DNA from: a bacterium
GTDB lineage: Bacteria > Patescibacteriota > Minisyncoccia > UBA6257 > JAGOQP01
Assembly: GCA_021814695.1 (NCBI GenBank)
Contig: JAKAHY010000002.1
Span: 8,920-72,919 of the forward strand
Reading direction: 5' to 3'
Length of the DNA stretch: 64,000 bases
Of the stretch, positions 3,427 to 62,459 are shown piece by piece. A model generated the notes under the pieces. That model was not told where the DNA came from. It worked only from the letters and a program-made list of their open reading frames with translations, and did not search any database. A program made the position numbers and the translations under genes. Each line of letters begins with the position of its first letter. Position 1 is the stretch's first letter.

Positions 3427-3470
3427 CTGTTTATTTATGATAGTGCCTTGTGGGATTTTTTTGCAAGCGA

Positions 3471-3481
3471 TGTGATATAAT
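3471..3481 (+). promoter_or_regulatory. Extended -10 promoter TGTGATATAAT, copy 1 of 4 of a shared motif
   Basis: ttgcaagcgaTGTGATATAATgaaacaaataaaaaactATG, nearly identical to the motifs at 5688, 8367 and 52583. Confidence 0.45.
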
Positions 3482-3498
3482 GAAACAAATAAAAAACT

Positions 3499-5643
3499 AT
3501 GAAAAAATCTTCATTAATCGTGGTCATTTTGCTTGTTGTGGCAAGCGTAGGAATGACCGTCATCTTTTCAAATCAAGTGTCGATAAAGGGATTTCTATCG
3601 AGCGTTTATTCTACTGCATCAGGCAGAAATCATATACAGCTGGCAAACGCTCAGTCCTTGGGACAGGGGGTTGTAGTTTTTAAAGCGCAATTTGGCCATT
3701 TGGAAGCAACCGGCCAAGTTGTCTCCGGTATTTCCGGACTAGCGGGGCTGCCGGTGACAAAATTTGTTCCCGACAGAGACCTTTCGGATTCTGAAAAAAA
3801 GCAGGTTGAAGTAAACATCACCGAAGAGAACACCGTTTTCGGATTTATTGTGGCAAAAAACGTTTCATTAGGGCAGGGAATCGGTTTTAACATTCCCCAA
3901 GGAGAAGTTTATAACTACGGTTTTTATGTGAATTCCGACATCCTTCCTCAAGGATGGACATATAACTCTTCTTGCGTAGAGACGGGAGGAAATATTAAAT
4001 TATCTGCCGGCCAACAAAGCGAATGCACGATAGGTTTTTATCTGAAACCAACGCCTGCGCCGGTTACTCCTCCCGCTTCGACGTCCACTCCCGTCTCACC
4101 TCAGGAAGGAGCGTCAGGTACCGTTATTAGTGAAGATTCCGGTTCTGGATCGCTGCAGTTTGTAAAAAATATTTTGGACTTAAGTACGGGGTGGAAAAAC
4201 CCCGGATCGGATAAAATATTGGACGCAAAAATCGTTGAATTATACGGAAAGAAATTTCTTATTGTTTCGACTCAAAACAAACATTTGCTTGTTTACGATG
4301 CTTCAAACCAGTTTTCGCCGGTTCTTTTGAAAGATAATGATTTATCAGGCAGTAACGTGTCGGCGTTTTATCTTGTGGTTTTAGATAATTTCAATTACGT
4401 ATTTGCCTGGGGAGGAAACTCTGCCAACTACGGATCTTTTAAGATTGAACAAGACGGATCTGCGTCTCTGGTAAAAAGTTACAAACCTGACCAATATAGC
4501 GTTACTCAACCGAATTTGGTTTTCGGGTTGTTTAGAGGGTTAGACGGTAAAGCGTATGGATTTGGAGGGAACGGGGGCGATGGATGGCTAACTATTTATG
4601 ACGTGTCCGATCCGGCAAACATCAGCGAAATTGGATCATATCAAGATGGCTTAGTCGGGAATCACTGCGGCAATTATGGTCTGATTGGATTGGACAGGCC
4701 GCTTCAATGGAATACTTCTCAACAAGGGAACAAGCTTTATCTGGTAACTCATGCGGACCAGTGCGTCCAGCGGCTGCATACTTCCGGAGACGCCAGAATT
4801 TATATTTTTGACGTTTCTGATCCAAAAAATCCGCAGCTTTCCCATCAATATGAGCTTTCCGGTTCTTTTAACCACATACCTTCGGACGCGACTAAGGCCG
4901 AACAGACATTTCTTTTTGGCGGGATCGCCGACATTGCCGTTGATTCAAATTCGGGTAAGGTTTTTGATTTTTACAGGACGGTTTTTGATTGGCAGGGGCC
5001 ATCCTGGTCTCAGATAGCAAACATAGTGCATGGTACTTTGTTTAGATACAGAACCGGACTGGTCACTCTTTCACTGCAATCGGACGGTTCTCTAAAAGAA
5101 TTGTCGCGGGCTTTATTGTGCGAACAAAAGGGCCCAATGTATGATGGTGGCGGTCCGCAATATTATCGATGCGGCGACGTGGATGGAAACGACAAAAATA
5201 CCCAAGGCGGATATGATTATTCGGCAAGAAATTCTCAACAAAATTACAACGGAGTTTTTCTCCTCAGTGGGCCGGGAAATAGCGGTCAGGTGGGCTTACT
5301 AAGGAGTGATAATAGTTTTGTTGTCATTCCCGATACCGCCGGAGAGATGACTAAATTTAAGACGGCTATTAAAGATTCATCTTATTATTCGAATATCTAT
5401 AATCCCGCTATCAATGGTGTTGTGACCCAGGTTGACAGTAAAACATTTGCCATCTATCAATTTGATAGTTATTCGTTAAGCGTCGTTAAGGTTTTGTTGT
5501 CGCAATCTCTTGTGGGGGGATCGAAAAATCCCTCTCCTCCAGTGACCGGAGTTGCGCCTTCGGCAAACGTACCACTAACATCACCCGCATTTTCATTTAA
5601 TGCGCTCCTGAACATCTTCAGAAGGATACTTAACAACTACTAA
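3499..5643 (+). CDS. Cell-surface protein, paralog A: N-terminal signal-anchor, P/T-rich linker, LVIVD-like beta-propeller repeats, conserved C-terminal tail
   Basis: Repeats of the type LTIYDVSDPANISEIGSY and IYIFDVSDPKNPQLSHQY; N-terminal TM MKKSSLIVVILLVVASVGMTVIF; C-terminus ...SPAFSFNALLNIFRRILNNY. Confidence 0.8.
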   Translation: MKKSSLIVVILLVVASVGMTVIFSNQVSIKGFLSSVYSTASGRNHIQLANAQSLGQGVVVFKAQFGHLEATGQVVSGISGLAGLPVTKFVPDRDLSDSEKKQVEVNITEENTVFGFIVAKNVSLGQGIGFNIPQGEVYNYGFYVNSDILPQGWTYNSSCVETGGNIKLSAGQQSECTIGFYLKPTPAPVTPPASTSTPVSPQEGASGTVISEDSGSGSLQFVKNILDLSTGWKNPGSDKILDAKIVELYGKKFLIVSTQNKHLLVYDASNQFSPVLLKDNDLSGSNVSAFYLVVLDNFNYVFAWGGNSANYGSFKIEQDGSASLVKSYKPDQYSVTQPNLVFGLFRGLDGKAYGFGGNGGDGWLTIYDVSDPANISEIGSYQDGLVGNHCGNYGLIGLDRPLQWNTSQQGNKLYLVTHADQCVQRLHTSGDARIYIFDVSDPKNPQLSHQYELSGSFNHIPSDATKAEQTFLFGGIADIAVDSNSGKVFDFYRTVFDWQGPSWSQIANIVHGTLFRYRTGLVTLSLQSDGSLKELSRALLCEQKGPMYDGGGPQYYRCGDVDGNDKNTQGGYDYSARNSQQNYNGVFLLSGPGNSGQVGLLRSDNSFVVIPDTAGEMTKFKTAIKDSSYYSNIYNPAINGVVTQVDSKTFAIYQFDSYSLSVVKVLLSQSLVGGSKNPSPPVTGVAPSANVPLTSPAFSFNALLNIFRRILNNY

Positions 5644-5656
5644 AAATTTAAAATAA

Positions 5657-5685
5657 AGCCCCCTGTAAATACAGGGGGCTTTTTG
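5657..5685 (+). terminator. Rho-independent terminator
   Basis: GCCCCCTGtaaataCAGGGGGCttttt. Confidence 0.7.
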
Positions 5686-5687
5686 AA

Positions 5688-5698
5688 TGTGATATAAT
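5688..5698 (+). promoter_or_regulatory. Extended -10 promoter TGTGATATAAT (copy 2)
   Basis: gaaTGTGATATAATgaaacaaATGaaaaaaac. The first ATG (5697) lies inside the -10 box, so the start at 5709 is preferred. Confidence 0.45.
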
Positions 5699-5708
5699 GA
5701 AACAAATG

Positions 5709-8321
5709 AAAAAAACATTACTCATCGGGTTTATTGTGGTCGGCATTGTAAGCTTTTCGGCATTTACCGCGCATGCTCAGTCGGTCAATTATCTTAGTAA
5801 ATTTTTTGCAGATGTCTACGGAGCGTTTTTTGGGAATTCCCAAACGCAAAAAGTTGACGCCCAAACAGTGGGTAATGGAACACTTACTATTCATGCTCAG
5901 ATATGTCAGACGCTCGGGAATTTCGAAAATCCAAGCAGTGCGACCTGTTCTGGTACTCCTCGCGACCCCAATTCTACGGAGTCTCCGTTATTTGTTTATG
6001 ATGTCCAGCGCATAGTTGGGAATGGAGCGAGCGCTCAAGTTACCACAGTTCTTTCAGGTATCGGTCCCGGACAAAGTTATTCGTTACCGGCGAATACTCC
6101 AAACGCTAGTAATAATAACAGAGATGAGTACGTGATTGTGTTTAAGGGGGCACCGACAAATTATTTGTACGTGAGACAAGGAGGAAATTTTGATTTGCCC
6201 TATAAATTTTCAATTTCTTCCGGACAAAATACTCAAGTAAATATTCCTTATGTTATTTATACGGCGATTGAATCAACGGGTCCTGTTGGCACTACTGTTA
6301 CCGCCGATATTGTTGATGGCAATGGAAATTTTGTCAGAGCGCTGACGGCTTCAGAAATTCAATCGGTATCCTTTGACATCCAGCATTCGGTTCCGGCCAC
6401 CGGAGGATATGTCGGATCGCATGCGAACAATTTTGATACTCAAGTTTCTTCGGGAAAATTAAATACTTCATATCAGCTTGCGACCTATGTCCATTCCGGT
6501 TCAATTTTGACAAATATTAAGCCACCATCCGGTTACGTAGTCAGATCAATTAAGCCGGGAACATATTTTGATCCTACTGATGACGTTACTATTCATTTTA
6601 CCAAGTCTCCTGTTTCGTCTCAGGTTCAAAAAGTTGATCAAATGCTCTATGTTCCTAATGGAATTAGCTATGTAAAAAAAATAGCTCAAACATATTCGGA
6701 CAATGAATACAAATATTCGAATCTTGACGTTGATTTATTTGCTTATTATGGAAACAATAATCGTCCTTTTCCCTTGAACTGGACAGTTGCCAAATATTCG
6801 GGAGTTCCTTATTTGTTTATGAATGGAGCAGGAAAGATAGTTATTTATAATATTTCCGATCCTAAAAATCCCAAACAAGTTAGTGAATATGTTCTTTCCG
6901 GTTTGGAAAAATTTAATCAATACAAAGATCGTCAGGGAAATACTTATGGACAGTGTTCTCCTAACCAAGAAGGTACTCATGATTTTATAACTGGAGCCGG
7001 TAAAGTTTTTGCTCTTGATGATTCCCCTTATCTTTTGATTGACATTCAGAGACCGGGTGGGCCAGGCCCTGGAGGGACGGCAGTTTTGTCCTTAGATCCT
7101 TCAACTATGGCCATAACCGCCTATCCTCAATGGACCGAGTGTAACAGTGGTCAAGATACTCCCGGAACCGCTTTCGGAATGTATAAAGGAAGTGACGGAA
7201 ATACTTATTTTATTTCCCAATTCCCGAATAATGCATATGATACGGGTGGAGTAGATACCGGGAATATTGGTATTTACACAATCAATTCTGCTGGTATTGC
7301 CAATAAAGTTGTCGTTCTCAGCGGAATGTCCGGGATTGCTCCGAGTTTGGATTATTCTAATGGAACAATCTCTGTTGTTTCCGTTGGAAGTAAAAAATAT
7401 CTTATTGGTAATGGAAAATCATCTATCGCAAACATAAATTCGACCAGTGCACCAATTTATATTTACGATATTTCCAATCCAAAAAATATAATCAAAATCA
7501 ATCAACAGATCACGGTGTCTACGTCTGGGTCCGGCAGATTAAAAATTGACGAACAAGCCAATCGTATGTATGTTCAGTCATCCATTCCAAATCCTGCCGC
7601 AACATCAACTTCGTACACCATCCCCAAAACATTACCTATTTGGCAGGTATATGACTTGAGTGTTTTGCCCAGTACTCCAAAATTAATTGCTACTTATAAC
7701 AAACCAACCGACCTACTTAATTCAAGTCAAGTGAATGCTGATTTTTCTCAAATTACCAAGAGATTAAATATTGCATCGTCAGGTAATCTTGTGGATATAA
7801 ATAATTCTTCTTTCACTTACGGCGCCTACGGATATTCTTCTTCACTCCAGTTGATAAATGTTTCAAATAATTTAGCTTATATATCACTGTATACAAACGG
7901 AAAAAACCCTTGGGATACGATTGCCAATCAAGCCGGAGTAACGGACGGAAGCGAATACGGGACCAATGCTATTCAATTTATAGTTGACGTGTCCAATGCG
8001 TCCAGTCCCAAAATACTTGGAATGATATTCGGGCATACGGAATATTCTGCTTACGGACTTTCCGCCGGCGGATGGTTTGATGTTCCTCTTTACGGAAGTA
8101 TCTATAACTATAACGGATATATTTACCGAGCCAATTTCCGCATCGCTGATGTATGGAAATTGGGGAATCCTCCGGCCCAAAGTACGGGAGGTGCTGGAAG
8201 TGGGGCTGGTGCGAGCGGCACTGGAACTACCGAAGGAGGATCTGCGCCATCATCAGTTCAATCTCCATTTTCTTTCAGTTCTCTTTTGAAGATATTCCAG
8301 AGAGTGTTTAATAATCAATAA
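5709..8321 (+). CDS. Cell-surface protein, paralog B: cleavable signal peptide, LVIVD-like repeats, conserved C-terminal tail (the ORF track starts at 5697)
   Basis: Signal peptide MKKTLLIGFIVVGIVSFSAFTAHA|QS; repeats IVIYNISDPKNPKQVSEY and IYIYDISNPKNIIKI; G/S/T-rich linker; C-terminus ...SPFSFSSLLKIFQRVFNNQ. Confidence 0.8.
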   Translation, partial: KKTLLIGFIVVGIVSFSAFTAHAQSVNYLSKFFADVYGAFFGNSQTQKVDAQTVGNGTLTIHAQICQTLGNFENPSSATCSGTPRDPNSTESPLFVYDVQRIVGNGASAQVTTVLSGIGPGQSYSLPANTPNASNNNRDEYVIVFKGAPTNYLYVRQGGNFDLPYKFSISSGQNTQVNIPYVIYTAIESTGPVGTTVTADIVDGNGNFVRALTASEIQSVSFDIQHSVPATGGYVGSHANNFDTQVSSGKLNTSYQLATYVHSGSILTNIKPPSGYVVRSIKPGTYFDPTDDVTIHFTKSPVSSQVQKVDQMLYVPNGISYVKKIAQTYSDNEYKYSNLDVDLFAYYGNNNRPFPLNWTVAKYSGVPYLFMNGAGKIVIYNISDPKNPKQVSEYVLSGLEKFNQYKDRQGNTYGQCSPNQEGTHDFITGAGKVFALDDSPYLLIDIQRPGGPGPGGTAVLSLDPSTMAITAYPQWTECNSGQDTPGTAFGMYKGSDGNTYFISQFPNNAYDTGGVDTGNIGIYTINSAGIANKVVVLSGMSGIAPSLDYSNGTISVVSVGSKKYLIGNGKSSIANINSTSAPIYIYDISNPKNIIKINQQITVSTSGSGRLKIDEQANRMYVQSSIPNPAATSTSYTIPKTLPIWQVYDLSVLPSTPKLIATYNKPTDLLNSSQVNADFSQITKRLNIASSGNLVDINNSSFTYGAYGYSSSLQLINVSNNLAYISLYTNGKNPWDTIANQAGVTDGSEYGTNAIQFIVDVSNASSPKILGMIFGHTEYSAYGLSAGGWFDVPLYGSIYNYNGYIYRANFRIADVWKLGNPPAQSTGGAGSGAGASGTGTTEGGSAPSSVQSPFSFSSLLKIFQRVFNNQ

Positions 8322-8333
8322 TAATTTGAAACA

Positions 8334-8359
8334 ATCCCCCTAGCTGGGGGATTTTTTTG
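8334..8359 (+). terminator. Rho-independent terminator
   Basis: ATCCCCCtagctGGGGGATttttttt. Confidence 0.7.
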
Positions 8360-8366
8360 CAAGCAA

Positions 8367-8377
8367 TGTGATATAAT
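8367..8377 (+). promoter_or_regulatory. Extended -10 promoter TGTGATATAAT (copy 3)
   Basis: tttttttgcaagcaaTGTGATATAATaaaacaaataaaaataaccATG. Confidence 0.45.
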
Positions 8378-8396: not shown

Positions 8397-10580
8397 ATGA
8401 AAAAATATTCATTAATTGTGATTATCTTACTTGTTGTTGCAAGTATAGGGATTACCGCTATCTTTTCAAGTCAAGTGTCGATAACCGGATTTCTTTTGAG
8501 CGTTTACTCAACTGTTTCGGGGAGCAATCAAATACAGAGAGTAAATGCACAAACGACAGGCCAAGGAACCATATTATTCCAAGGCCAATTCGGTCATCTT
8601 GAATCGACCGGAAAGGTCACTACCGGAATTTCGGGCTTATCCGGACTTCCGGTGATGAAATTTGTTAAAGACCGTGACCTATCTAGCGATGAAAAAAATC
8701 AGATTAGAGTGGATGTTATTGAACATAACACTCCTTTTGAATTTGTAGTTGCAAAAAATATTTCGCTTGGAGAGGGTGTTAATTTTAATATTCCCGTAGG
8801 TTCGACATATAGATATAGTTTTTATGTTCACCCCGACTCGATTCCCTCCGGATGGGTTTATTATTCCGGTTGTTTAGAGACCGATGGGAATGTTTCGGTA
8901 CTGGCCGGTCAGCAAAGTACTTGCAGCATAGGATTTTATTTAAAGCCCGAAACAATCTCACCCCCTCCGGTCACATCAACATCTACGATCACGTCTACTC
9001 CTTCGGTAGGTGTTTCGGGAACTGTTGTCGGTGAAGATGCCAGCGCAGGATCGTTGCAGTTTGTAAAAAACGTTTTGGATTTAAGCTCACAAAGAAAGGG
9101 CATTATTTATGGAGTTTTGGACGCAAGAACCGTTAATTTGTATGGAAAAAATCTTCTGATAGTTGCTAGAGGTGGAGCTTACTCTGCTACCACTCCAACC
9201 TGGCATATGCTTGTTTATGATATAACCGATCCGCTTGCCCCGGTTCTTTTGAAGGATAATGATATGTCCGGAAGTGGCATAATCTATAGTTCTCCAATGA
9301 CCGGTTTGGCAGTGCTTGATGGCTTTAATTATGTATTTGTCCGTGGAAATGTCGGTTACGGTTCGTTTAAAATTAATCAGGACGGAACTGCGTCTCTTGT
9401 GAAAAGCTATAAATATTCTGAAGTTCAGCAGATACAGACAGATTTAATCAGGGGATTGTTCAACGGTCTGGATGGAAATATATACGGCTACGGAGGGTTT
9501 GTGCAGGATGGAGGACTCGTGCTTTATAACGTTTCCGATCCCGCTAATATTATTCAAGTTGGAACGTATACTAATGGTCTTGAACCAGCGATTGCCATCT
9601 ATGGACAAATTGGATTGAATCGCCAGAGCACTTGGGGCGTTGTTAAAGAAGGAGGCAAACTTTATCTTATTGCTCATGCGGACCAGTTGGTTCTGCGCCT
9701 TCATACGGATTATGATGGAATGATTTATGTTTTTGATGTGTCCAATCCGGCAAGTCCGCAGCTTTCACATATCTATAAAATGTCCAGCTCCTTTAATCAC
9801 CTTCCTTCCGATATGACTTCGTATGAGAAGATGTTTCTTTACGGAGGAGAAGCTAATATATCGGTTGATCCAATATCAAATAGAGTATTTGATTTTTACA
9901 GAACGGTTTTTGATTGGCAGGGACCCAATCAGCTTAAGATAAAAGACATTCCTAAAGGAGCCTTGTTTCGTTATAGAAATGGAATAGCCGTTCTTTCAAT
10001 AGGAATCGATGGTTCTTTGAAATCAAGTTCCAGTAACATATTATTGTGCGAAAGAATAGCCATTCAAGATAATGGGACGTCAGGCGAAGATAAATGTGAT
10101 ACAAAGAGTCCCGAAACGGTTGGGGGATATTATAGTTCCAGTCTTTATGGAAACAGGAATCCTCAAGAAAATTATAACGGAGTATTTCTTCTTGGCGACG
10201 TGAATAATGTCGGACATGTAGGGCTGTTAAAAAGCGATGGTAGTTTTGTTATCATACCCGATCCAACCGGAGAAATGCTTAAATTCAAATCTGTCTTGGC
10301 TGACCCGTCGTATTATTCCGATCCTGGTTTTCGTTCGTCTCCAATCAATGGCATTGTCACTCAAGTTGATAGCAAAACCTTTGCAATATTTCAGATTGAT
10401 AATTATTCCATAAGTGTTACAAAGCTAAATCTATCACAATCCATAACGAGCGTAACACAAAAATCTTCGCCACCTACCACAAATGCCCCTAGTTCATTAA
10501 ATACATCATCTCCTACTCAGACTCCATTTTCCTTCAGCTCGCTCCTGAGAATATTTCAGAGGGTGTTCAATAGTCAGTAA
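8397..10580 (+). CDS. Cell-surface protein, paralog C (close paralog of A)
   Basis: N-terminal 230 aa nearly collinear with paralog A; repeats VLYNVSDPANIIQVGTY and IYVFDVSNPASPQLSHIY; C-terminus ...TPFSFSSLLRIFQRVFNSQ. Confidence 0.8.
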   Translation: MKKYSLIVIILLVVASIGITAIFSSQVSITGFLLSVYSTVSGSNQIQRVNAQTTGQGTILFQGQFGHLESTGKVTTGISGLSGLPVMKFVKDRDLSSDEKNQIRVDVIEHNTPFEFVVAKNISLGEGVNFNIPVGSTYRYSFYVHPDSIPSGWVYYSGCLETDGNVSVLAGQQSTCSIGFYLKPETISPPPVTSTSTITSTPSVGVSGTVVGEDASAGSLQFVKNVLDLSSQRKGIIYGVLDARTVNLYGKNLLIVARGGAYSATTPTWHMLVYDITDPLAPVLLKDNDMSGSGIIYSSPMTGLAVLDGFNYVFVRGNVGYGSFKINQDGTASLVKSYKYSEVQQIQTDLIRGLFNGLDGNIYGYGGFVQDGGLVLYNVSDPANIIQVGTYTNGLEPAIAIYGQIGLNRQSTWGVVKEGGKLYLIAHADQLVLRLHTDYDGMIYVFDVSNPASPQLSHIYKMSSSFNHLPSDMTSYEKMFLYGGEANISVDPISNRVFDFYRTVFDWQGPNQLKIKDIPKGALFRYRNGIAVLSIGIDGSLKSSSSNILLCERIAIQDNGTSGEDKCDTKSPETVGGYYSSSLYGNRNPQENYNGVFLLGDVNNVGHVGLLKSDGSFVIIPDPTGEMLKFKSVLADPSYYSDPGFRSSPINGIVTQVDSKTFAIFQIDNYSISVTKLNLSQSITSVTQKSSPPTTNAPSSLNTSSPTQTPFSFSSLLRIFQRVFNSQ

Positions 10581-10598
10581 AAATTAAAAATAAAATTG

Positions 10599-10630
10599 CT
10601 CCCATTTTAACGGATGGGGGCTGTTTTTTT
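10599..10630 (+). terminator. Rho-independent terminator
   Basis: CTCCCATtttaacggATGGGGGctgttttttt. Confidence 0.65.
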
Positions 10631-10668: not shown

Positions 10669-13600
10669 ATGTTGAGAAATCTTAAACACTTTAATCCGCC
10701 GGAAATTGAGGAAAAAGTTTTACAGCTTTGGAAAGAAAAAGGGATATTTCAAAAAACACTCAAAGTTCCAAAAGGAAAAAAGGCCCTGCCTACCGGCAGG
10801 CAGGCAAAAATATTTCGGTTTTGGGAAGGTCCACCGACAGCCAATGGCCGTCCCGGAATTCATCATATTTTAGCCCGTTCTTTTAAGGACGTTGTTTTGC
10901 GTTTTAAAACGATGCAAGGGTATACGGTTCCCCGTAAGGGTGGTTGGGATACTCATGGATTGCCCGTTGAAATCCAGGTTGAAAAGCAGCTCGGATTTAA
11001 AACAAAAAAAGATATAGAAGATTACGGAATAGCCGCATTCAACCAAAAATGTAAAGAATCAGTCTGGCTTTATCAAAGCGAATGGGAAAAATTGACCGAA
11101 CGCATGGGTTTTTGGCTGGATTTGAAAAATCCTTATGTCACATACCACAAAGATTACATAGAGTCGCTTTGGTGGATCATCAAACAAGTTTGGGATAAAG
11201 GGTTGATGTATCAAGGGCATAAAGTGGTTCCTTGGTGTACTCGCTGCGGGACAGCTCTTTCTTCCCATGAATTGGCTCAAGGATACAAAGAGCTTACCGA
11301 TACTTCTGTTTACATAAAATTTAAACTTCTTCCAAAACAAAAAATCGGTTCTTTTATAACCGATGATAAAACATACATCTTATCCTGGACGACGACTCCT
11401 TGGACTTTGCCCGGAAACGTCGCTTTGGCAGTCGGAAATAAAATCAAATATATTGCGGCAAAAATCGGAGGAGAGACTTTTATTATTGCGGAAGATCTTG
11501 CCGGATCGGTTTTGGGATCGGAAAATCATAAAGTTATCAATGAATTTAAAGGCGAGTCGATTTCAGGGAAAGAATACGCCCCACTTTTTGAAATTGCGGC
11601 ATTAAAAAAACCGGAATCGTACAAGGTATATCCGGCTAAATTTGTGACAACCACCGATGGAACGGGGGTGGTGCACACGGCCGTAATGTACGGAGAGGAC
11701 GATTATAACCTGGGAAAAGAAGTCGGACTTCCTCAGCATCATACGGTTACCGAACAAGGAACTTTCACAAAAGACGTTAAAGGATTTGAAGGGATGTACG
11801 TCAAAGCCAAGGAGACCGAGGATAAGATACTAGATTATCTAAAGAAAAATAATTTCCTTTTGCAAACACAGGCTTATACCCATGAATATCCTCATTGCTG
11901 GAGATGTGGAACTCCGCTTTTGTATTACGCGCGCAGTTCATGGTTTGTAGCGATGTCGAAACTGAAAGATAATCTGATCGAAAGCAACCAGGGAACCAAC
12001 TGGGTTCCGGCACATATCAAAGAGGGCAGATATGGAGAATGGCTCTCCGAAATTAAAGATTGGAATTTTTCACGGGAAAGATATTGGGGCACCCCACTGC
12101 CGATCTGGACGTGCGAGAATTGTGGAAACCATAAAGCTGTTGGAAGTTATAAAGAGCTTTCGGAACATCTTCCTTCTAGTACCAACAGATATATTCTTGT
12201 CCGTCATGGAGAAGCGGGGCAAAATGTTTCCAATATAATCAACTGCGACCCCAAAGATAAGGATAAATACCCGTTAACAACCAATGGAATAATCCAGGCG
12301 AAGAGAACTTCCCTGAGCCTCAAGAAAAAAATAAAAAAAATAGACGCGATTATCTCGTCGGATTTTATTCGGACAAAGGAAACCGCAAAAATTATCGGCG
12401 ATGAATTTGGAATAAAGAAAATAATCACCGATCCGCTTTTGAGGGAAGTTAACATGGGAGATTTTAACGGGGACAATGTTTCTCGTTACCACGAGTACTT
12501 TTCTTCGCTTGAAGAAAAATTTATGAAACGGACCCCTAACGGAGAAAACCTCAGAGATCTGGCCGCAAGAAGCTACGATTTTATACAAAAATGTGAAAAA
12601 AAATACAGCGGGAAAACTATTGTTGTGGTAGGGCATGAATATCCGCTGTGGATGGCGGAGACCGTTCTTTCTGGATGGAGTCAGGAAGAATCGGTGTCGG
12701 AAAAAGAAAAAAGAGGTCCCGATTTTATAGAAGTCGGAGGATTTGATTCCGTTACTTTTGTTCCGGCATCAAGAGATGAACAGGGAATCTGTGATTATCA
12801 TAAGCCATATGTGGATTCAATCAGCATCCCTTGCGAAAAATGCGGAAAAAAGATGAATCGAGTTAAAGAAGTTGCCGACGTATGGTTTGATTCGGGGTCA
12901 ATGCCATTTGCCCAAGATCATTATCCTTTTGAGAAGGGTGATAAAGTCGGGAAAGCGCCCCAATCGTTTCCGGCCGATTATATCTGTGAGGCAGTCGATC
13001 AGACCCGCGGGTGGTTTTACACTCTTATGGCCGTCTCTACATTATTGGATTATGAAACGCCGTATAAAAACGTCGTTTGCCTAGGGCATATAAACGACAA
13101 GCATGGACAGAAAATGTCCAAATCAAAAGGGAACATTGTTGATCCATGGATGATAATAGATAAATATGGCATTGATGCCGTTAGGTGGTATTTTTACACC
13201 GTTAATGCTCCGGGGGAGCCGAAGAATTTTGACGAGAATGAGGTTGCTAAAGTACTGAGAAAATTCAGCATGACTCTTTATAATTCGTTCGCGTTTTTGG
13301 CGCTTTATGGAAAACAGAAGGTAAGTATCCAAAAGAAACCTTCATCGCCGAATATTTTGGACAGGTGGATTTTGGCAAGGCTAAATCAAACAACTGTCGG
13401 AGTTTCGGACAAAATGGACGCATATGATTTCTTGGCTACCGGACAAATAATAGAATCGTTTATTGACGATCTTTCCAGATGGTACATTCGCCGATCGAGA
13501 AAGAGATTCCAAAAAATTTCGGATAAATCGGATTGGGGTACGGCGACCGGTGTTTTGGCGTATGTTTTGGCCGAATTTTCAAAAGTGATCGCTCCCTTTA

Positions 13601-14223
13601 CTCCATTTTTCGCCGAAGCTCTTTACAGATCCATAGCCGAATTTTGTTCGTTTAGCGCAAAAGAATCCGTTCATCTCGAATCATGGCCGGAGGGCAGGGT
13701 TTTTAATGACGATGCGGTTATGTCGGAAGCCATGAAACAGATAAGAGACTACGCCAGTGCTGTTTTGGCAAAAAGAGCCGAAGTTGGAATCAAAGTGCGG
13801 CAGCCTTTGAGCTTGTTGAAAATAAGAAGCATTAAGTCTAAAGAAAAAGACTCTAAACAATTATTAGAAGTGTTAAGGGATGAAGTTAACGTCAAAGAAG
13901 TTGTGATTGATCCAAAAATAGAAAATGAATTTGAGTTGGATATCAACATCACTCCGGAACTTAAAGCCGAAGGAATTTTGAGGGAAATAGCCCGGACAAT
14001 TCAGGAATTGAGACAAAGTTCGGCATGTGTTCCCAAGGATAAAATAGAAGTTCGCATTTCCGGACCTGCCGACATTGAAGCGGTGGTCAAAAACGGACAA
14101 GCCACGCTTTGCCAATACGTTAACGCCAAAAATATTCTTTTCGGTAAGAGCGGTAAATTTGATTCCGAAATTGAAACCAAAATTGATTCGTCAAAAATTT
14201 GGATAGGTTTAAGAAAAATATAA
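10669..14223 (+). CDS. ileS: Isoleucyl-tRNA synthetase (1184 aa) with an inserted histidine-phosphatase-like domain
   Basis: HIGH region PTANGRPGIHHILARS; KMSKS motif QKMSKSKGN; CP1/editing region; CxxC..CxxC zinc motifs (CENCG ... CEKCG); about 205 extra residues between the zinc knuckles. Confidence 0.95.
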   Translation: MLRNLKHFNPPEIEEKVLQLWKEKGIFQKTLKVPKGKKALPTGRQAKIFRFWEGPPTANGRPGIHHILARSFKDVVLRFKTMQGYTVPRKGGWDTHGLPVEIQVEKQLGFKTKKDIEDYGIAAFNQKCKESVWLYQSEWEKLTERMGFWLDLKNPYVTYHKDYIESLWWIIKQVWDKGLMYQGHKVVPWCTRCGTALSSHELAQGYKELTDTSVYIKFKLLPKQKIGSFITDDKTYILSWTTTPWTLPGNVALAVGNKIKYIAAKIGGETFIIAEDLAGSVLGSENHKVINEFKGESISGKEYAPLFEIAALKKPESYKVYPAKFVTTTDGTGVVHTAVMYGEDDYNLGKEVGLPQHHTVTEQGTFTKDVKGFEGMYVKAKETEDKILDYLKKNNFLLQTQAYTHEYPHCWRCGTPLLYYARSSWFVAMSKLKDNLIESNQGTNWVPAHIKEGRYGEWLSEIKDWNFSRERYWGTPLPIWTCENCGNHKAVGSYKELSEHLPSSTNRYILVRHGEAGQNVSNIINCDPKDKDKYPLTTNGIIQAKRTSLSLKKKIKKIDAIISSDFIRTKETAKIIGDEFGIKKIITDPLLREVNMGDFNGDNVSRYHEYFSSLEEKFMKRTPNGENLRDLAARSYDFIQKCEKKYSGKTIVVVGHEYPLWMAETVLSGWSQEESVSEKEKRGPDFIEVGGFDSVTFVPASRDEQGICDYHKPYVDSISIPCEKCGKKMNRVKEVADVWFDSGSMPFAQDHYPFEKGDKVGKAPQSFPADYICEAVDQTRGWFYTLMAVSTLLDYETPYKNVVCLGHINDKHGQKMSKSKGNIVDPWMIIDKYGIDAVRWYFYTVNAPGEPKNFDENEVAKVLRKFSMTLYNSFAFLALYGKQKVSIQKKPSSPNILDRWILARLNQTTVGVSDKMDAYDFLATGQIIESFIDDLSRWYIRRSRKRFQKISDKSDWGTATGVLAYVLAEFSKVIAPFTPFFAEALYRSIAEFCSFSAKESVHLESWPEGRVFNDDAVMSEAMKQIRDYASAVLAKRAEVGIKVRQPLSLLKIRSIKSKEKDSKQLLEVLRDEVNVKEVVIDPKIENEFELDINITPELKAEGILREIARTIQELRQSSACVPKDKIEVRISGPADIEAVVKNGQATLCQYVNAKNILFGKSGKFDSEIETKIDSSKIWIGLRKI
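10785..10804. repeat. 20-nt GC-rich near-perfect palindrome CCTGCCTACCGGCAGGCAGG inside ileS (encodes ..ALPTGRQAK..)
   Basis: Inverted-repeat arms CCTGCCTA/CAGGCAGG around CCGG; the same palindrome recurs at 36984..37003 in csaA. Confidence 0.6.
12175..12790 (+). other. Inserted histidine phosphatase (phosphoglycerate-mutase-like, branch 1) domain within IleRS
   Basis: YILVRHGEAGQN (RHG catalytic motif with N at +7) ... VVGHEYPLW (second His); inserted between WTCENCG and YHKPYVDSISIPCEKCG. Confidence 0.6.
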
Positions 14224-52550: not shown

Positions 52551-52582
52551 ATGAATTTTGACCTAAGCTATTAAGGCAATAA

Positions 52583-52593
52583 TGTGATATAAT
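52583..52593 (+). promoter_or_regulatory. Extended -10 promoter TGTGATATAAT (copy 4)
   Basis: aaggcaataaTGTGATATAATaataactt... 33 nt upstream of the ATG at 52626. Confidence 0.4.
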
Positions 52594-52625: not shown

Positions 52626-53384
52626 ATGAGAAACAAATTATTTGTATTATTCGTAGCAGTGGCTCTTGTTTTCGGTGGAATATACTATGCTTTCGCTCAA
52701 GAAAGCGGAGGAGCAAAAGTCCAACTACAAGGACAAGTCGAGACCCAAAACAGTGGGGGAGAAGTCCAGGTTCAGGTCCAATCCCGGAACGAGGTACAAA
52801 GTGGGAATGACAGCGAAAAGAATTCTACCGGCACCGAGTCCGAGATGAACCAGAAAAACGAAATTCAAGGCCAGAATGAGATTAAGGGAGAAAATGAAAT
52901 TGAAGCAACGAGCTCACAGGAAGGAACGAGCAGCGATCAGGAAGTCGAAAAAACCGAGCCGGTAAAAATGGCCGAGCAAACCAGAAGCGAAGTCGCTAAC
53001 GCAGTTCAGGAAATGCTTAGCGTTGCCGACAGAGCCGGAGGAATCGGAAGCGAAATCAAAGTTATTGCACAAGCCCAAAATGAAAATCAGCTGAAAATAG
53101 AAAACAGCATAAAAAATATTGAAGGGCGAAACGGCTTCGTTAAATTTTTGATAGGTCCGGACTACAATGAAGTTGATAATGCCCAAAAGGCCTTGAGCCA
53201 AAACAAGGAACAAATTACCCAACTCAACCAAATTAAGGCTAAAATTACCAATCAGGCCGATCAGCAGGTGTTGGCTAACCAAATCTCCATTCTTGAAAAA
53301 GCCAACGTGAATATTGAAACGTCTCTGAATCAATCGCAAGGAGGTTTTAGTCTTTTTGGCTGGCTGTTTAGGATAGTTAAATAA
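52626..53384 (+). CDS. Secreted low-complexity (Q/N/E/S-rich) hypothetical protein
   Basis: Signal peptide MRNKLFVLFVAVALVFGGIYYAFA|QE; repeated NEIQGQNEIKGENEIE; C-terminus GGFSLFGWLFRIVK. Confidence 0.65.
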   Translation: MRNKLFVLFVAVALVFGGIYYAFAQESGGAKVQLQGQVETQNSGGEVQVQVQSRNEVQSGNDSEKNSTGTESEMNQKNEIQGQNEIKGENEIEATSSQEGTSSDQEVEKTEPVKMAEQTRSEVANAVQEMLSVADRAGGIGSEIKVIAQAQNENQLKIENSIKNIEGRNGFVKFLIGPDYNEVDNAQKALSQNKEQITQLNQIKAKITNQADQQVLANQISILEKANVNIETSLNQSQGGFSLFGWLFRIVK

Positions 53385-57047: not shown

Positions 57048-58142
57048 TTGTCTTATACGACCATGTTTGATCTCTTAAAAAAAATTATTCCCGGACGATC
57101 TTCTTATCTTGGCGTTGATATCGGGACTACCTCAATTAAAGCTGTCGAACTTACCAAAGGAGCGCAAAATCCGACTCTGACGAATTACGGACTTTTGGAA
57201 AGTTATGGCCACTTTGAGCGTGCTAATAATGTCATACAGGCCAACGCCCTTAAGCTTTCAGAAAAAGAGACAACGTTTATGCTTAAGACTCTTGTAAAAC
57301 AATCGGGATTTAAAACCAGCGCGGCGATTGCATCCATTCCTTCGTTTGCTTCTTTCATAACAATGATTGAAATGCCCTCCATGTCAGAAGAAGAGACTAA
57401 TAAAGCTATGGGATTTCAGATAAGACAGAGCGTTCCTCTGCCCCTATCGGAAATTGCCGTAGATTGGATTAGGGTCGGCGAACGCAATGATGAAAACGGG
57501 TTTGCTAAACAGCAGATGGTTCTCATCGCAATTCCAAACGAAACGGTTTCCAGATATAAATCTATTTTCAAGGGAGCGGGACTTTCTTTAAAAGCGCTCG
57601 AAGTGGAAAGCCTGTCCTATATACGATCGGTTATTGGAGGAGATAAAACTCCTTCGATGATTATTGATATCGGTGCGCGCTCCACAAACATCACTGTCGT
57701 TGACCAGGGATTTTTGAAACATAATTCTCAGATAGATTATGCCGGAGATTCTTTAACGCAAGCGATTACCAAGGGACTGGGTATAAGCTACAAGAGAGCC
57801 GAGGAGCTCAAGAAACAACGGGGCATAAGCGGAGGGTCCGGAGAATATGAGTTATCCACATTGGAACTACCTTTCATAGATGTTATAATTAGTGAGGTAA
57901 ATAAGGTTAAGGACAATTTTGAGTCCAATTTTGGCTTAAAAATTCAGCGGGCCATACTCATAGGGGGAGGCTCAAGCTTGATAGGAATAGATAAATATTT
58001 TGAAAGCCAAATGCAAATAACCTCAGTGTTGGGCAATGGATTACTTTTTGTGAATACTCCAAGTCAGTTGAACGTTGTTGAAAAAGAGTTGCAGGTAAGA
58101 TTTGCGACAGCGATAGGGCTTGCGATAAAGAATTTCGTTTAG
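57048..58142 (+). CDS. pilM: Type IV pilus assembly protein PilM (actin-like ATPase)
   Basis: LGVDIGTTSIKAVEL...IIDIGARSTNI...LIGGGS. Confidence 0.85.
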   Translation: MSYTTMFDLLKKIIPGRSSYLGVDIGTTSIKAVELTKGAQNPTLTNYGLLESYGHFERANNVIQANALKLSEKETTFMLKTLVKQSGFKTSAAIASIPSFASFITMIEMPSMSEEETNKAMGFQIRQSVPLPLSEIAVDWIRVGERNDENGFAKQQMVLIAIPNETVSRYKSIFKGAGLSLKALEVESLSYIRSVIGGDKTPSMIIDIGARSTNITVVDQGFLKHNSQIDYAGDSLTQAITKGLGISYKRAEELKKQRGISGGSGEYELSTLELPFIDVIISEVNKVKDNFESNFGLKIQRAILIGGGSSLIGIDKYFESQMQITSVLGNGLLFVNTPSQLNVVEKELQVRFATAIGLAIKNFV

Positions 58143-58155
58143 TTTTAAATTTTTC

Positions 58156-58719
58156 ATGGCAGATTTAAATACAACAGTAAATCGAGCGCGAGCGGCAGGA
58201 GCGGCATCCGCCGGTTTTCCTTGGCGGCTTTTAATTATATCTTTCGTTGTGTTCGGGCTGACGATTCTTGTCTGGGCCGGAATTCAATTTGGATACATTC
58301 CGTTTTTGAATTCCCAGTTATCGAACGCTATGGCTAATTTTAATTCCCTTTCCGGAAAAATCAGCGAGCAACAGCAGAAAGACCTGACCGGTTTTTATTC
58401 TCAGCTCTATAATATTCAGTCTTTGCAAGCGTCACATATTTATTCCGCGAAACTGTTTGATTTTTTGGAGAAAAATATTTATCCCAACGTTGTTTTAACC
58501 AGTTTTCAGGCGAGCCTTACCGGAGGAAGTATCCGTTTTGATGGAATTGCTTCCGACTACTCTACCCTAACTAACGAGCTGGCAATACTTAAATCCGATC
58601 CGAACGTAACTTTGGTAACGCTGGATTCGTCGCGCCAAAAAGATGTTAAAGAAGGAGGGGGAGTGGCATTTACAATAAGCGTATCCATTTCGCCAAAATT
58701 ATTTGATTCCGCCCAATAA
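58156..58719 (+). CDS. pilN: PilN-like type IV pilus assembly protein
   Basis: Single N-terminal TM; position after pilM. Confidence 0.55.
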   Translation: MADLNTTVNRARAAGAASAGFPWRLLIISFVVFGLTILVWAGIQFGYIPFLNSQLSNAMANFNSLSGKISEQQQKDLTGFYSQLYNIQSLQASHIYSAKLFDFLEKNIYPNVVLTSFQASLTGGSIRFDGIASDYSTLTNELAILKSDPNVTLVTLDSSRQKDVKEGGGVAFTISVSISPKLFDSAQ

Positions 58720-59305
58720 TATGAAAACAAGCTCCAGAAGAATTCTATTTGTCATATTATCTCTAACCTTGGTTATTGCGGCTGCTTTTGTATATTCCTC
58801 TTTTATTTCTCCGGCCTATGACAATGTCATGACTTTAAGAAGCCAAATTGCGTCCCAGAACTCCGTTATTCAGAGATTCCAGATTACATTCGGAAAGGTG
58901 CAAAAACTTTTATCGGATCTTCAGACCGCTCCGGATGTCCAAAAACAGGTATCTCTGATTCTCCCGACGTCCCGTGACGTGAGTTATTTGGTCGGCCAGA
59001 TTTCAGGACTTGCCGAAGCAAACGGAATGACGCTTTCGCTTCTTTCAACAAATGTTCTTCCGGTTCAGCCGGCACAATCCAAAGTTATTCAGTCTGTGGG
59101 AAAATTGCGAGCGGATATCAAGTTGAACGGAAGTTATGCCGGATTCAAATCTTTTCTGAGGCAATTGCAATCAAATATTCTTCTGCTTGATGTGACGGAT
59201 ATTAAAATAGACAGCAGCGTGGTCAGTGGCACTACCGGTAGGGCCGGCTCAACATCTTTATCGTATTCCATATCTGTAAATAGTTATTATCAAACGAGTC
59301 AATAA
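58703..59305 (+). CDS. pilO: PilO-like type IV pilus assembly protein
   Basis: N-terminal TM, coiled coil; overlaps pilN by 17 nt. Confidence 0.5.
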   Translation: MIPPNNMKTSSRRILFVILSLTLVIAAAFVYSSFISPAYDNVMTLRSQIASQNSVIQRFQITFGKVQKLLSDLQTAPDVQKQVSLILPTSRDVSYLVGQISGLAEANGMTLSLLSTNVLPVQPAQSKVIQSVGKLRADIKLNGSYAGFKSFLRQLQSNILLLDVTDIKIDSSVVSGTTGRAGSTSLSYSISVNSYYQTSQ

Positions 59306-59308
59306 TTT

Positions 59309-59605
59309 ATGGCAATTTTTATTGAAGAAGAAAAAAAGGGAGGTGGCAGGTGGTTTGGTTTCGGGATAATATTTATTTCCCTCATAATTGTTGGGGCAGC
59401 GGTTTATTATCTGTTTTTTGTACAGACTCAATTATTCAACGTAGTCCTTCCGATAAAACTTCAATCCATTGACGAACTGACAAAGATCGCGAATTTTGAC
59501 CCTCAGACGGTTATCAACAGCGATTTTTATAAAAGTCTAAGACAGGTGATTCCGCCGCCGAGTCCTCCTCCGGCCGGCAACGCATCCCCATTTAATGTTT
59601 TTTAG
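59309..59605 (+). CDS. Small single-TM protein with proline-rich C-terminus within the pilus operon
   Basis: TM WFGFGIIFISLIIVGAAVYYLFF; C-terminus PPPSPPPAG. Confidence 0.45.
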   Translation: MAIFIEEEKKGGGRWFGFGIIFISLIIVGAAVYYLFFVQTQLFNVVLPIKLQSIDELTKIANFDPQTVINSDFYKSLRQVIPPPSPPPAGNASPFNVF

Positions 59606-59607
59606 AT

Positions 59608-61344
59608 ATGGAGAACAAAGTTCTCATTGACAAGTTAATTGCATCGGGCGCACTGAGTCAGGATAACGGGCAGAAGCTTCTTCAAGAAGCTTCTTTTGCC
59701 AAACGACCAGTGGAAGAACTCATGTACGAAAGGAGAATTATTCCCGAACAAGCGCTGATGGATGCAAAGAGCCAGCTTCTTAAAGCGCCGTATAAAAAAA
59801 TTGACCCGCAGTCTATTACCGACCAAGTTTTGAAAACAATTCCGGAAACTACCGTAAGAAATTTTAAAGTTGTTCCGATTGAGTTAAAAGAAGATCTGTT
59901 AGTTGTCGGTATGGTTAATCCCGACGATGAGAAGGCCCAGGATGCGCTAAAATTCATAGCCAGGCAACTGAGGGTGAATCTTGGAATATATCTTATTCCC
60001 ATGTCTTTGTGGGACACGATCCTGAGAAGATATTCTCCATACCGGAGTGAAGTTGAAGCGGCAGTGAAATCTATTTCGGCTTTTGGTAAAAAAATGACGC
60101 CGGCATCCCAGATTGTTCAATTGGAAGCTGGCCAGACCGGAGCGGAAGATGCTCCAATCATCCGCATAGTGGCATCAACTTTAAAAGAAGCGGTTTTTGA
60201 GCAGGCGTCAGATATACATATAGAGCCTCAGCGTAATCGACTGCGTATTCGTTTCAGGCTTGATGGGGAATTGAGGGAAGTGGCCTCAATGCCTCTTGAG
60301 CTTTATCAGCCAATCGTTTCGCGCATAAAAGTCCTTTCGGATTTGAAAATAGACGAGACTCGTGTTCCTCAAGATGGGCGCTTTAGGACAATGTTAATGG
60401 GAAGGGATATAGACTTTCGTGTTGCGACATTTCCGACTCCGGTAGGGGAAAAAGTAGCAATACGTGTTTTGGACCCGACTGTCGGGCTGAAGGGGCTTAA
60501 GGAGCTGGGGCTTATGGGAAGAAATTTGGATATTATTCAGCAGGGAATAGAAAAGCCTTACGGCATGGTACTTATCACCGGACCAACCGGTTCGGGTAAA
60601 ACAACGACGCTGTATGCTTTGATGCAGGGACTTAACAACGATTCGGTTAATATCGTCAGCTTGGAAGATCCTGTGGAATATTATATGGACGGATTAAACC
60701 AGTCCCAAGTACACCCCGAAATAGGATACGACTTTGCTTCCGGACTCAGACAGATTCTAAGACAAGATCCCGATATTATTATGGTCGGTGAAATTCGCGA
60801 TAATGAAACTGCGGCACTGGCCGTTCATGCGGCTCTGACCGGACACATTGTTCTATCGACGCTGCACACCAATAACGCAGTCGGAGTTATTCCTCGTCTT
60901 TTGGATATGAAAGTCGATTCATTCCTTATCCCGGCATCGCTAAACTTGATGGTTGGCCAGCGCCTGATTCCAAAACTTTGCCAGCAATGCAAAGAAGAGA
61001 AGCAACTCACTCCGGATTTAACCAGAGAAATGGAAGCTACTCTTAAGGAAATATCCGAAGAGGACAAAAAATCTTTTGGTATAGAAGCTCCTTATAAAGT
61101 TTACGAATCCAAGGGTTGCTCCGCGTGTAAGGGCAAAGGAATTTCCGGACGTATAGCAATGTTTGAAATATTAAGAATGACTCGGGAATTGGCGGAAGTC
61201 ATCAGTCGTAAGGGAACCGAGGGCGATATTGTTAAGGAGGCGGAGCGACAACATATGATTACTTTGCGCCAGGATGGGGTGATGAAGGCGGTTAAAGGTT
61301 TGGTATCTTTGGAAACCGTTCTTCGTGAAACGGAATTGATGTAA
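59608..61344 (+). CDS. pilB: Type IV pilus assembly ATPase PilB
   Basis: N-terminal GSPII_E_N domain; Walker A GPTGSGKTTT; Asp/His boxes; CQQC...CSAC zinc motif. Confidence 0.9.
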   Translation: MENKVLIDKLIASGALSQDNGQKLLQEASFAKRPVEELMYERRIIPEQALMDAKSQLLKAPYKKIDPQSITDQVLKTIPETTVRNFKVVPIELKEDLLVVGMVNPDDEKAQDALKFIARQLRVNLGIYLIPMSLWDTILRRYSPYRSEVEAAVKSISAFGKKMTPASQIVQLEAGQTGAEDAPIIRIVASTLKEAVFEQASDIHIEPQRNRLRIRFRLDGELREVASMPLELYQPIVSRIKVLSDLKIDETRVPQDGRFRTMLMGRDIDFRVATFPTPVGEKVAIRVLDPTVGLKGLKELGLMGRNLDIIQQGIEKPYGMVLITGPTGSGKTTTLYALMQGLNNDSVNIVSLEDPVEYYMDGLNQSQVHPEIGYDFASGLRQILRQDPDIIMVGEIRDNETAALAVHAALTGHIVLSTLHTNNAVGVIPRLLDMKVDSFLIPASLNLMVGQRLIPKLCQQCKEEKQLTPDLTREMEATLKEISEEDKKSFGIEAPYKVYESKGCSACKGKGISGRIAMFEILRMTRELAEVISRKGTEGDIVKEAERQHMITLRQDGVMKAVKGLVSLETVLRETELM

Positions 61345-61382
61345 ATTAGCCAATAAATATTCGATAAGTTATACTTAAATAT

Positions 61383-62453
61383 ATGACTGACTACAAACAG
61401 AAACTGAACGATCTTTTGTTGATGTGCGCCAAACAAGATGCTTCCGACCTGCATATTGCCGTTGGGCGCCACCCGACTTTGCGTATAGACGGAGCATTGG
61501 TTCCGCTGACAAAAGAATTAATATTGACACCCCAGGATGCCGAAGGCCTTGTTTTGGCTTTATTGACCGAATCTCAGAAGGGCGAACTTGCCTTGAAAAA
61601 ACAAGTCGACTTTTCTTATTCCTATGAAGACAAAGCGCGGTTCAGGGTAAATACTTATTATCAGCGCGGATATATGGCTGCGGCTTTGCGTTTAATTCCG
61701 GCCCAAATCAGAACAATTGAGGAACTTAAATTACCTCCGATACTGCATGATTTTGCCAATCTGTCACAGGGATTCGTGCTTGTTGTGGGTCCGGCGGGAC
61801 ACGGCAAGTCAACGACGCTGGCCGCCGTTTTGGATGAGGTAAACCATAATCGCACGGAACACATTGTCACCATTGAAGATCCGATAGAATATATTTTCGT
61901 TCAGGATAAAAGTATCGTTTCCCAAAGAGAGGTGCGGACCGATGCTATGGATTTTTCGCAGGCATTGAGATCGCTTCTCAGACAGGACCCGGACGTAGTT
62001 ATGATAGGAGAAATGCGCGATACGGAATCTATTGCAACTGCCTTAACCGCAGCCGAAACCGGACACTTGGTTCTTTCAACTCTTCACACCAACTCCGCTT
62101 CTCAAACAATCGACAGAATCATAGACAGCTTTCCGGCCGAACAGCAAAGTCAGATAGCTTCTCAACTTGCGGCAACGCTTGTGGGAATCGTTTCCGAGCG
62201 TCTTATTCCACGAATCGAAGGAGGCCGTGTTCCGACTTGTGAAATTATGATAGCCAATCCGGCCATAAGAAATTTAATTCGGGAAAGAAAAACCTATCAG
62301 ATAGATTTGGTTATAGAAACTAATGCTCAAGAAGGAATGATCACGCTCAATCGTTCGTTGGCGGATTTGGTGCGCCGCAGGGAAATAAGCTTGGAAAATG
62401 CCGAGTTGTACTCTCTCAATCCTTCCGAGTTAAGAATCCTTTTGGAAAAATAA
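61383..62453 (+). CDS. pilT: Twitching-motility/retraction ATPase PilT
   Basis: Walker A GPAGHGKSTT; PilT signature AIRNLIRE. Confidence 0.9.
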   Translation: MTDYKQKLNDLLLMCAKQDASDLHIAVGRHPTLRIDGALVPLTKELILTPQDAEGLVLALLTESQKGELALKKQVDFSYSYEDKARFRVNTYYQRGYMAAALRLIPAQIRTIEELKLPPILHDFANLSQGFVLVVGPAGHGKSTTLAAVLDEVNHNRTEHIVTIEDPIEYIFVQDKSIVSQREVRTDAMDFSQALRSLLRQDPDVVMIGEMRDTESIATALTAAETGHLVLSTLHTNSASQTIDRIIDSFPAEQQSQIASQLAATLVGIVSERLIPRIEGGRVPTCEIMIANPAIRNLIRERKTYQIDLVIETNAQEGMITLNRSLADLVRRREISLENAELYSLNPSELRILLEK

Positions 62454-62459
62454 ATAGAA

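Follow-up and report, generated by a model that had tools for sequence, protein, structure and literature searches.

A family-specific amphipathic C-terminal tail on three tandem beta-propeller proteins: a candidate in-plane membrane anchor rather than a general sorting signal

Prokaryotic C-terminal sorting signals are built of a signature motif, a hydrophobic segment of transmembrane (TM) length and a terminal cluster of basic residues. They occur on multiple unrelated proteins per genome and are accompanied by a cognate endopeptidase (10.1101/2023.06.07.544157). In-plane membrane anchors constitute another recognised class of elements (PMC1564421). In E. coli PBP5, a Sec-exported enzyme, a C-terminal amphipathic helix of 18 aa provides the tether to the outer face of the inner membrane and is needed for the localisation of the protein (PMC2909392). 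Here we consider a short C-terminal tail common to three paralogous proteins, A, B and C, encoded in a 64-kb stretch of the bacterial contig JAKAHY010000002.1 (the window, meaning the whole stretch of DNA analysed). Their genes follow smpB in tandem on the + strand. The organism probably belongs to Patescibacteria, since homologues of one window protein carry the names Paceibacterota, Pacebacteria and Patescibacteria. We tentatively interpret the tail, by analogy, as a family-specific C-terminal amphipathic helix acting as an in-plane (monotopic) membrane anchor, and give this interpretation somewhat less than an even chance.

The tail is located at the extreme C-terminus and follows the consensus [ST]P(A)FSFxxLLxIFxR[IV][LF]N. 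The translated ends of A (SPAFSFNALLNIFRRILNNY), B (SPFSFSSLLKIFQRVFNNQ) and C (TPFSFSSLLRIFQRVFNSQ) are each followed by a stop codon and agree exactly with those quoted in the preliminary description of this DNA, as does the end of a fourth protein, the product of the open reading frame (ORF) 52626, which is discussed below. Each tail is preceded by the low-complexity linker that the same description had reported: S, T, P and G make up 57-70% of the 30 residues before the tails versus 31-34% in the body. Among 341 stop-to-stop ORFs of the window, the regular expression FS[FL].{2,4}LL.I[FV].R matches A, B and C only. B and C have 16 of 18 tail residues in common while being 28% identical overall; only 2 of 920 sliding windows are equally good, and the tail is the best-conserved window between the two proteins.

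At the DNA level the tails of B and C are very different. The proportion of differing synonymous sites (pS) is 0.92 and that of non-synonymous sites (pN) is 0.05, i.e., nearly all synonymous sites differ and there are two non-synonymous differences. Synonymous divergence is saturated with the amino acids kept; therefore, selection acts on the peptide and not on a nucleotide element, and the tail is maintained by purifying selection on the protein. Recent gene conversion as the source of the B/C tail identity is ruled out by the saturated synonymous sites.

The protein family carrying the tail is tiny. Word-indexed searches of 5.8 billion proteins returned only C, A and P0003, a protein from GCA_900175155.1 which is 26% identical and ends, after an S/T/P linker, in TLYSIRSILNNLRRILNR. 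The upstream neighbour of P0003 (locus L006) is a further paralogue ending in SLYSIKSIIDFIKRVCRTCSQ. A scan of 185,579 GTDB species-representative genomes added one syntenic orthologue, L007 (2646-5255, metagenome-assembled genome (MAG) WY3.bin111), and no further family members were found in a metagenome scan. The body of L007 is 68% identical to B, while its tail, AFSFQSLLNIFRRILNNR, is A-like: 15 of 18 tail residues and 23 of about 30 first residues (23/30) are identical to those of A. Because L007 is a mosaic of a B-like body and A-like ends, the sequences indicate that the ends, the tail among them, have been swapped between paralogues as modules by past recombination.

The decisive search was an exhaustive HMMER run of a 30-position tail profile against 1.84 billion (1.84e9) cluster-representative proteins. 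It recovered B and A with E-values of 1e-13 and 2e-10, and also P0005, a 208-aa C-terminal fragment of a family member with the tail PFSFNSLLRVFRRVLNQQ. The remaining match, P0006, was rejected as a chance similarity due to TPFSF repeats. No unrelated protein with the tail motif was found in this set at E <= 0.001. Together with the regular expression and the sliding window comparison, the profile E-values place the common tail of the three paralogues beyond chance. All its carriers are mutual homologues: the three paralogues, L007 and P0005, with a diverged form in P0003 and its neighbour.

Our survey of C-termini extended to 53 ORFs that have hydrophobic segments at the N-terminus. They come from roughly 150 kb of DNA, made up of the window plus five related loci, of which two are family loci from other MAGs and three surround homologues of ORF 52626. 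Strongly amphipathic, basic and aromatic C-termini were found only in the A/B/C family and in the ORF 52626 family. About 20 kb of DNA from both sides of the window contain no further tail carrier. The exact motif is thus a property of a single family. The preliminary description had itself named a motif confined to these paralogues, with no enrichment among secreted proteins, as evidence against its proposal of a sorting or secretion signal, and the distribution observed largely conforms to this.

In all seven family members (A, B, C, L007, P0005, P0003 and the L006 paralogue) the tail comprises the last 18 residues. [ST]P(A)FSF is found in five of these tails and LYSI in two, so that Ser alone is invariant within the motif. 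Across the whole tail S3, R13 and, gaps aside, N16 are invariant. The diverged relatives have the looser LYSI[RK]SI[IL]xx[LI][KR]R[IV] instead of FSFxxLLxIFxRV; relatives that keep a tail of the same character have body identities of 26-33%. The YSIR and YSIK of P0003 and its neighbour (L006 12340-12409, 9820-9890) recall the N-terminal YSIRK motif of Gram-positive surface proteins, which is probably a coincidence.

Viewed as an alpha-helix, the tails have a hydrophobic moment (muH, 100 deg) of 0.38-0.68 over 18 residues and of 0.50-0.78 over the last 16, and for most of them no more than 5% of shuffled sequences match the observed value. The helix faces are cleanly segregated into an apolar one (F/L/F/V/F) and a polar one (S/S/K/R/N/N), and the hydrophobic residues have an a/d-like spacing. 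The net charge is +2 to +4, with no acidic residue in six of the seven tails. The last 16 residues contain two or three aromatics in the five FSF-type tails and one in the two diverged tails. With the longest run free of K/R/D/E/Q/N/H being 3-7 aa and the maximum 17-aa mean Kyte-Doolittle hydropathy 0.40-1.15, the tails cannot span a membrane. In an AlphaFold2 (AF2) model of A built from a 4-sequence alignment, residues 700-711 form a helix apart from the body, with low confidence.

The remaining parts of the proteins look appropriate for an exported location. The N-termini of A, B and C have a Lys-rich n-region and a hydrophobic h-region of 15-20 residues, and no other TM-like window is present. 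A candidate signal peptide cleavage site is seen in B between AHA and QS; A and C have no clear AXA site. Then come a beta-rich N-terminal domain, in A and C also an internal S/T/P linker, a beta-propeller-like body, the C-terminal linker and the tail. A conserved [NDE]AQ[ST]xGxG is located about 25 residues past the signal peptide hydrophobic core (window 3499-3660, 5706-5880, 8397-8560; L006 7644-7760) with an aromatic segment (GFLSSVYST / YLSKFFADVYGAFF) ahead of it. This extra segment is missing in the L006 paralogue, where the core leads directly into KAQTGGG; the segment may represent an extension of the signal peptide or else a pro- or anchor piece at the N-terminus.

The LVIVD repeat was defined on cell-surface proteins of archaea and bacteria (Adindla et al., 2004, PMC2447325). 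A and C resemble these, scoring 27.1 and 21.3 bits with the Pfam model PF08309 (gathering cut-off 20.2), while B had no match to it in the Pfam scan and only one repeat per protein was detected. Hence, the name "LVIVD proteins" initially given to all three is appropriate for A and C and not for B. A sequence search found no relative of solved structure for the family.

We propose that the three beta-propeller proteins are exported by the Sec system via their N-terminal signals. The linker of about 30 S/T/P/G-rich residues would serve as a flexible stalk, and the last 17 or so residues would form a cationic aromatic helix lying in the outer leaflet of the cytoplasmic membrane. The propeller would thereby be tethered at the cell surface, as is the case with the last 18 residues of E. 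coli PBP5. We infer each of these steps, i.e., export, signal peptide cleavage, helix formation and membrane binding, as well as the absence of tail cleavage. Since exact residues drift while amphipathicity, the S/T/P linker and basic charge persist, a physicochemical role fits better than that of an enzyme recognition site. muH of the tails is comparable to that of the PBP5 anchor and of the FtsA membrane-targeting sequence. A surface-retention role is further supported because four of seven distant propeller relatives from other phyla carry a surface module at the same end, namely the type A sorting domain of the type IX secretion system (T9SS; TIGR04183, 29-40 bits); this suggests that such propellers are typically displayed at the surface via a C-terminal module. 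From the original proposal of a sorting or anchoring signal we therefore retain anchoring as the best reading, in view of the flexible linker, the putative N-terminal export signals, the purifying selection and the amphipathic helix, and find sorting not supported.

Several points weigh against an in-plane anchor. The mean hydrophobicity H of the tails is about 0-0.15 versus 0.38 for the PBP5 anchor, and membrane binding is a prediction from analogy and sequence properties. The sharp [ST]P(A)FSF of five tails and the invariant S3, R13 and N16 exceed the needs of bulk amphipathicity and could reflect partner recognition. An uncleaved N-terminal hydrophobic segment in A and C, which their lack of a clear AXA site would permit, would itself be an anchor and make a second one look redundant. 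The organism's envelope type is deduced only from the homologues named Paceibacterota or Patescibacteria. Finally, the AF2 model of A is poor, with a mean predicted local distance difference test score (pLDDT) of 47.5; for this reason it was discarded for fold search and tail docking.

A, B and C each have their own predicted extended -10 promoter and a terminator-like hairpin (Table 1). The 12-mer ATGTGATATAAT, corresponding to the extended -10 element, occurs four times in the window versus 0.43 expected, solely upstream of A, B, C and ORF 52626. This bears out the earlier observation that the four genes have the same promoter. In the orthologous genes of L007 and L006, TGCTATAAT is found at the same place. 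The mechanical ORF start of B (5697) falls within the -10 box. Because this box ends 8 nt before the ATG of the MKKTLL start, the transcript of B may be leaderless or nearly so. The common promoter suggests that the four genes form a small co-expressed set, or regulon, of surface proteins.

The product of ORF 52626-53384 ends in GGFSLFGWLFRIVK, followed by a stop codon. It belongs to a large family (family 4): at E <= 0.001 it has 103 matches, i.e., 102 besides itself (P0009-P0110), several of them named Paceibacterota, Pacebacteria or Patescibacteria. Nearly all homologues end in (K/G)FSLFGW[LMAIV]x[KR][LMIF][FL]xK. In 74 aligned sequences F, S, L, F and W of the FSLFGW motif are conserved at >=90% and G at 100%, at a mean column identity of 23%. 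On the basis of the family alignment, AF2 predicts a four-helix bundle with high confidence (residues 112-238, pLDDT above 90) and, after it, a separate short C-terminal helix at 243-251. PDB fold and sequence searches retrieved generic helical bundles only, none of them significant, and no relevant Pfam or NCBIfam model exists for the family. The gene neighbourhood of the homologues is not conserved, and no mention of "FSLFGW" was found in the literature searched.

The initial suggestion that this tail is related to those of A, B and C did not hold in reciprocal local tests with hidden Markov models (HMMs). With the HMM of 79 family-4 tails, tail B reaches 1.4 bits and tail A 1.0 bit, scores that fall inside the background given by 613 ORF ends, and tail C is not among the top 30 matches listed. 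Conversely, the A/B/C tail HMM scores family-4 tails no higher than background. P0106 (FSLFGFFRNIFRRNQNN), an apparent bridge between the two tail types, failed to score. The likeness is one of type only.

ORF 52626 is followed, at a distance of 4 kb, by a complete type IV pilus cluster (57048-63674; L019 11277-14935). It includes PilM, PilN, PilO-like, PilB, PilT, PilC, prepilin peptidase and several N-methyl pilin-like genes. In locus L015 a family-4 homologue is situated within 6-10 kb of pilM/pilO/pilB. Other genes of the window include tmRNA and ribosomal protein genes, and its G+C content is 38-44% in 4-kb windows. Isoleucyl-tRNA synthetase (10669-14223, 1184 aa), encoded downstream of C, has an unusual insertion: a match to the histidine phosphatase family PF00300 between two tRNA-synt_1 segments.

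Table 1. Positions in the window of the four genes, their tails and linkers, the shared promoter 12-mer and terminator-like hairpins
Feature	Position	Strand	Description
Paralogue A	3499..5643	+	714 aa; predicted N-terminal export signal, N-domain, internal S/T/P linker aa 179-211, LVIVD-type beta-propeller, C-terminal linker, tail
Paralogue B	5706..8321	+	871 aa from MKKTLL; body 26-28% identical to A and C
Paralogue C	8397..10580	+	727 aa; 57% identical to A
Tail A	5587..5640	+	AFSFNALLNIFRRILNNY; type 1, common to L007 orthologue
Tail B	8265..8318	+	PFSFSSLLKIFQRVFNNQ; type 2
Tail C	10524..10577	+	PFSFSSLLRIFQRVFNSQ; type 2; stop 10578-10580, within 10516-10580
Linker before tail A	5497..5586	+	S/T/P/G-rich, 57% STPG
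Linker before tail B	8175..8264	+	S/T/G-rich, 70% STPG
Linker before tail C	10434..10523	+	S/T/P-rich, 67% STPG
Promoter 12-mer upstream of A	3470..3481	+	ATGTGATATAAT
Promoter 12-mer upstream of B	5687..5698	+	ATGTGATATAAT; ends 8 nt before ATG at 5706
Promoter 12-mer upstream of C	8366..8377	+	ATGTGATATAAT
Promoter 12-mer upstream of ORF 52626	52582..52593	+	ATGTGATATAAT
Terminator-like hairpin after A	5655..5682	.	palindromic stem, T-run downstream on +
Terminator-like hairpin after B	8333..8353	+	sequence
Terminator-like hairpin after C	10598..10621	+	sequence
Fourth protein (ORF 52626)	52626..53384	+	252 aa; predicted signal peptide, low-complexity region, four-helix bundle, short C-terminal helix
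Tail of fourth protein	53346..53381	+	FSLFGWLFRIVK; FSLFGW motif

The sharpness of the motif, with its invariant Ser, Arg and (gaps aside) Asn in seven tails, is also what could be expected of a docking or oligomerisation peptide. The helix would then bind not lipid but a partner such as another component of the surface or S-layer, the co-regulated four-helix bundle encoded by ORF 52626, or further copies of the tail. The a/d-like spacing of hydrophobic residues, the exchange of ends between paralogues as modules and the joint expression suggested by the unique promoter 12-mer of the four genes would all agree with such a role. However, the tail offers only about 2.5 heptads and is Phe-rich, which is atypical of coiled coils, and any partner is hypothetical. 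The ORF 52626 family has a wide distribution, the propeller family is very rare, and no family-4 homologue was reported from the P0003 contig; hence, the two do not strictly co-occur. We consider docking unlikely.

Next, the tail might be a new kind of non-TM sorting signal, recognised and perhaps cleaved by a dedicated enzyme or machinery which attaches the protein to the wall or S-layer. It resembles the tripartite signals (LPXTG/sortase, PEP-CTERM/exosortase, PGF-CTERM/archaeosortase, GlyGly-CTERM/rhombosortase and MYXO-CTERM) in its extreme C-terminal position, in the short signature-like motif after a low-complexity linker, in the basic residues and in the presence of several copies per genome; purifying selection would be expected as well. 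Moreover, the different conserved FSLFGW tail in a large Patescibacteria family suggests that short C-terminal motifs may be a theme of the phylum. In contrast to these signals, the A/B/C tail has no TM-length hydrophobic segment. It also lacks the terminal basic cluster: K/R are located inside the helix (positions 8-13), the termini of A, B and C are NNY, NNQ and NSQ, and P0003 ends in RRILNR. It is restricted to paralogues and orthologues within a single family and absent from all other putatively exported ORFs of the roughly 150 kb sampled, and the two tail types have no detectable relation.

Pfam and NCBIfam scans of A, B, C and the ORF 52626 product revealed no known sorting domain, with no match to the NCBIfam sorting-domain models at E <= 1. 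In agreement with the preliminary description, the tail matches none of the LPXTG, PEP-CTERM and T9SS motifs. The processing enzyme expected to accompany a sorting signal did not turn up either: sortase-, exosortase-, rhomboid- and CPBP-type genes are absent from the Pfam matches listed for the called genes of the loci examined and for ten window ORFs scanned. Because the motif belongs to a single family, contains no TM stretch, has no NCBIfam match and has no sortase-like gene among these Pfam matches, the sequence data do not support a general sorting signal, and the proposed analogy with LPXTG, PEP-CTERM and the T9SS C-terminal domain (CTD) was not borne out. A true sorting signal of a new, non-TM kind seems improbable to us.

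A third alternative is a membrane-active peptide that, exposed or released, would insert in the manner of antimicrobial peptides into the membrane of a host or partner cell, which would fit an episymbiotic lifestyle. A cationic, aromatic and amphipathic profile of 16-18 aa is typical of such peptides, the tail is carried on a putative adhesin-like propeller, and type IV pilus genes are present within the window. However, this idea is purely analogical, with no processing site or protease evident, and we regard it as very improbable. Equally hard to accept is a tail with no specific function, kept through shared ancestry, because the tandem paralogues evolve in concert, or because a DNA or RNA element overlaps it: all carriers are homologues, and the tandem array and the mosaic L007 show that recombination occurs, but neither recent conversion nor a nucleotide element fits the contrast of pS and pN, the tail is conserved between B and C better than any other part, and relatives with strongly diverged bodies keep a tail of the same character.

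Retention of proteins at the surface of Patescibacteria (CPR) is little understood, and no experimental work on it was found in the literature searched; the same search yielded nothing on amphipathic C-terminal anchors in this group. A selected modular C-terminal tether on putative adhesin-like propellers would provide a concrete, testable handle on the problem. As a type of feature the A/B/C tail is ordinary, carried here by a family not previously studied, and on present evidence it does not amount to a new sorting system. More promising leads are the FSLFGW family and the shared promoter, which may matter more than this tail. One could further speculate that Patescibacteria possess a new class of short non-TM C-terminal retention signals (PFSFxxLLxIFxR, FSLFGW), read by the envelope machinery to place co-regulated abundant surface proteins, but we see this as a long shot.

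Among the described systems, the T9SS CTD is similar to the tail in its placement: it occupies the same end of distantly related LVIVD-type propellers in FCB-type MAGs. The relatives ending in the type A domain (L009, L010, L011 and L013) come from KSB1, WOR-3, Cloacimonadota and other MAGs. A relative from Ignavibacteria has dockerin-like GDVDxSGxVDIDD repeats at its end, judged by eye (L008 10403-10762). The CTD is a beta-sandwich of about 70-80 aa found in diderm bacteria, whereas the A/B/C tail has about 18 aa and is predicted to be helical; A, B and C have no match to TIGR04183 (>23 bits).

The membrane-targeting sequences of MinD and FtsA are closer in character, being short C-terminal cationic amphipathic helices that bind in the membrane plane. 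They operate on the cytoplasmic face and on proteins that are not exported. The anchors of low-molecular-weight penicillin-binding proteins (E. coli PBP5/DacA, PBP6 and DacD) combine an N-terminal signal with an aromatic, basic, non-TM terminal helix, as A, B and C are predicted to do. There is no sequence similarity to PBP5, whose cargo is a carboxypeptidase, while in A, B and C the cargo is a beta-propeller and the helix is preceded by a 30-aa S/T/P/G stalk.

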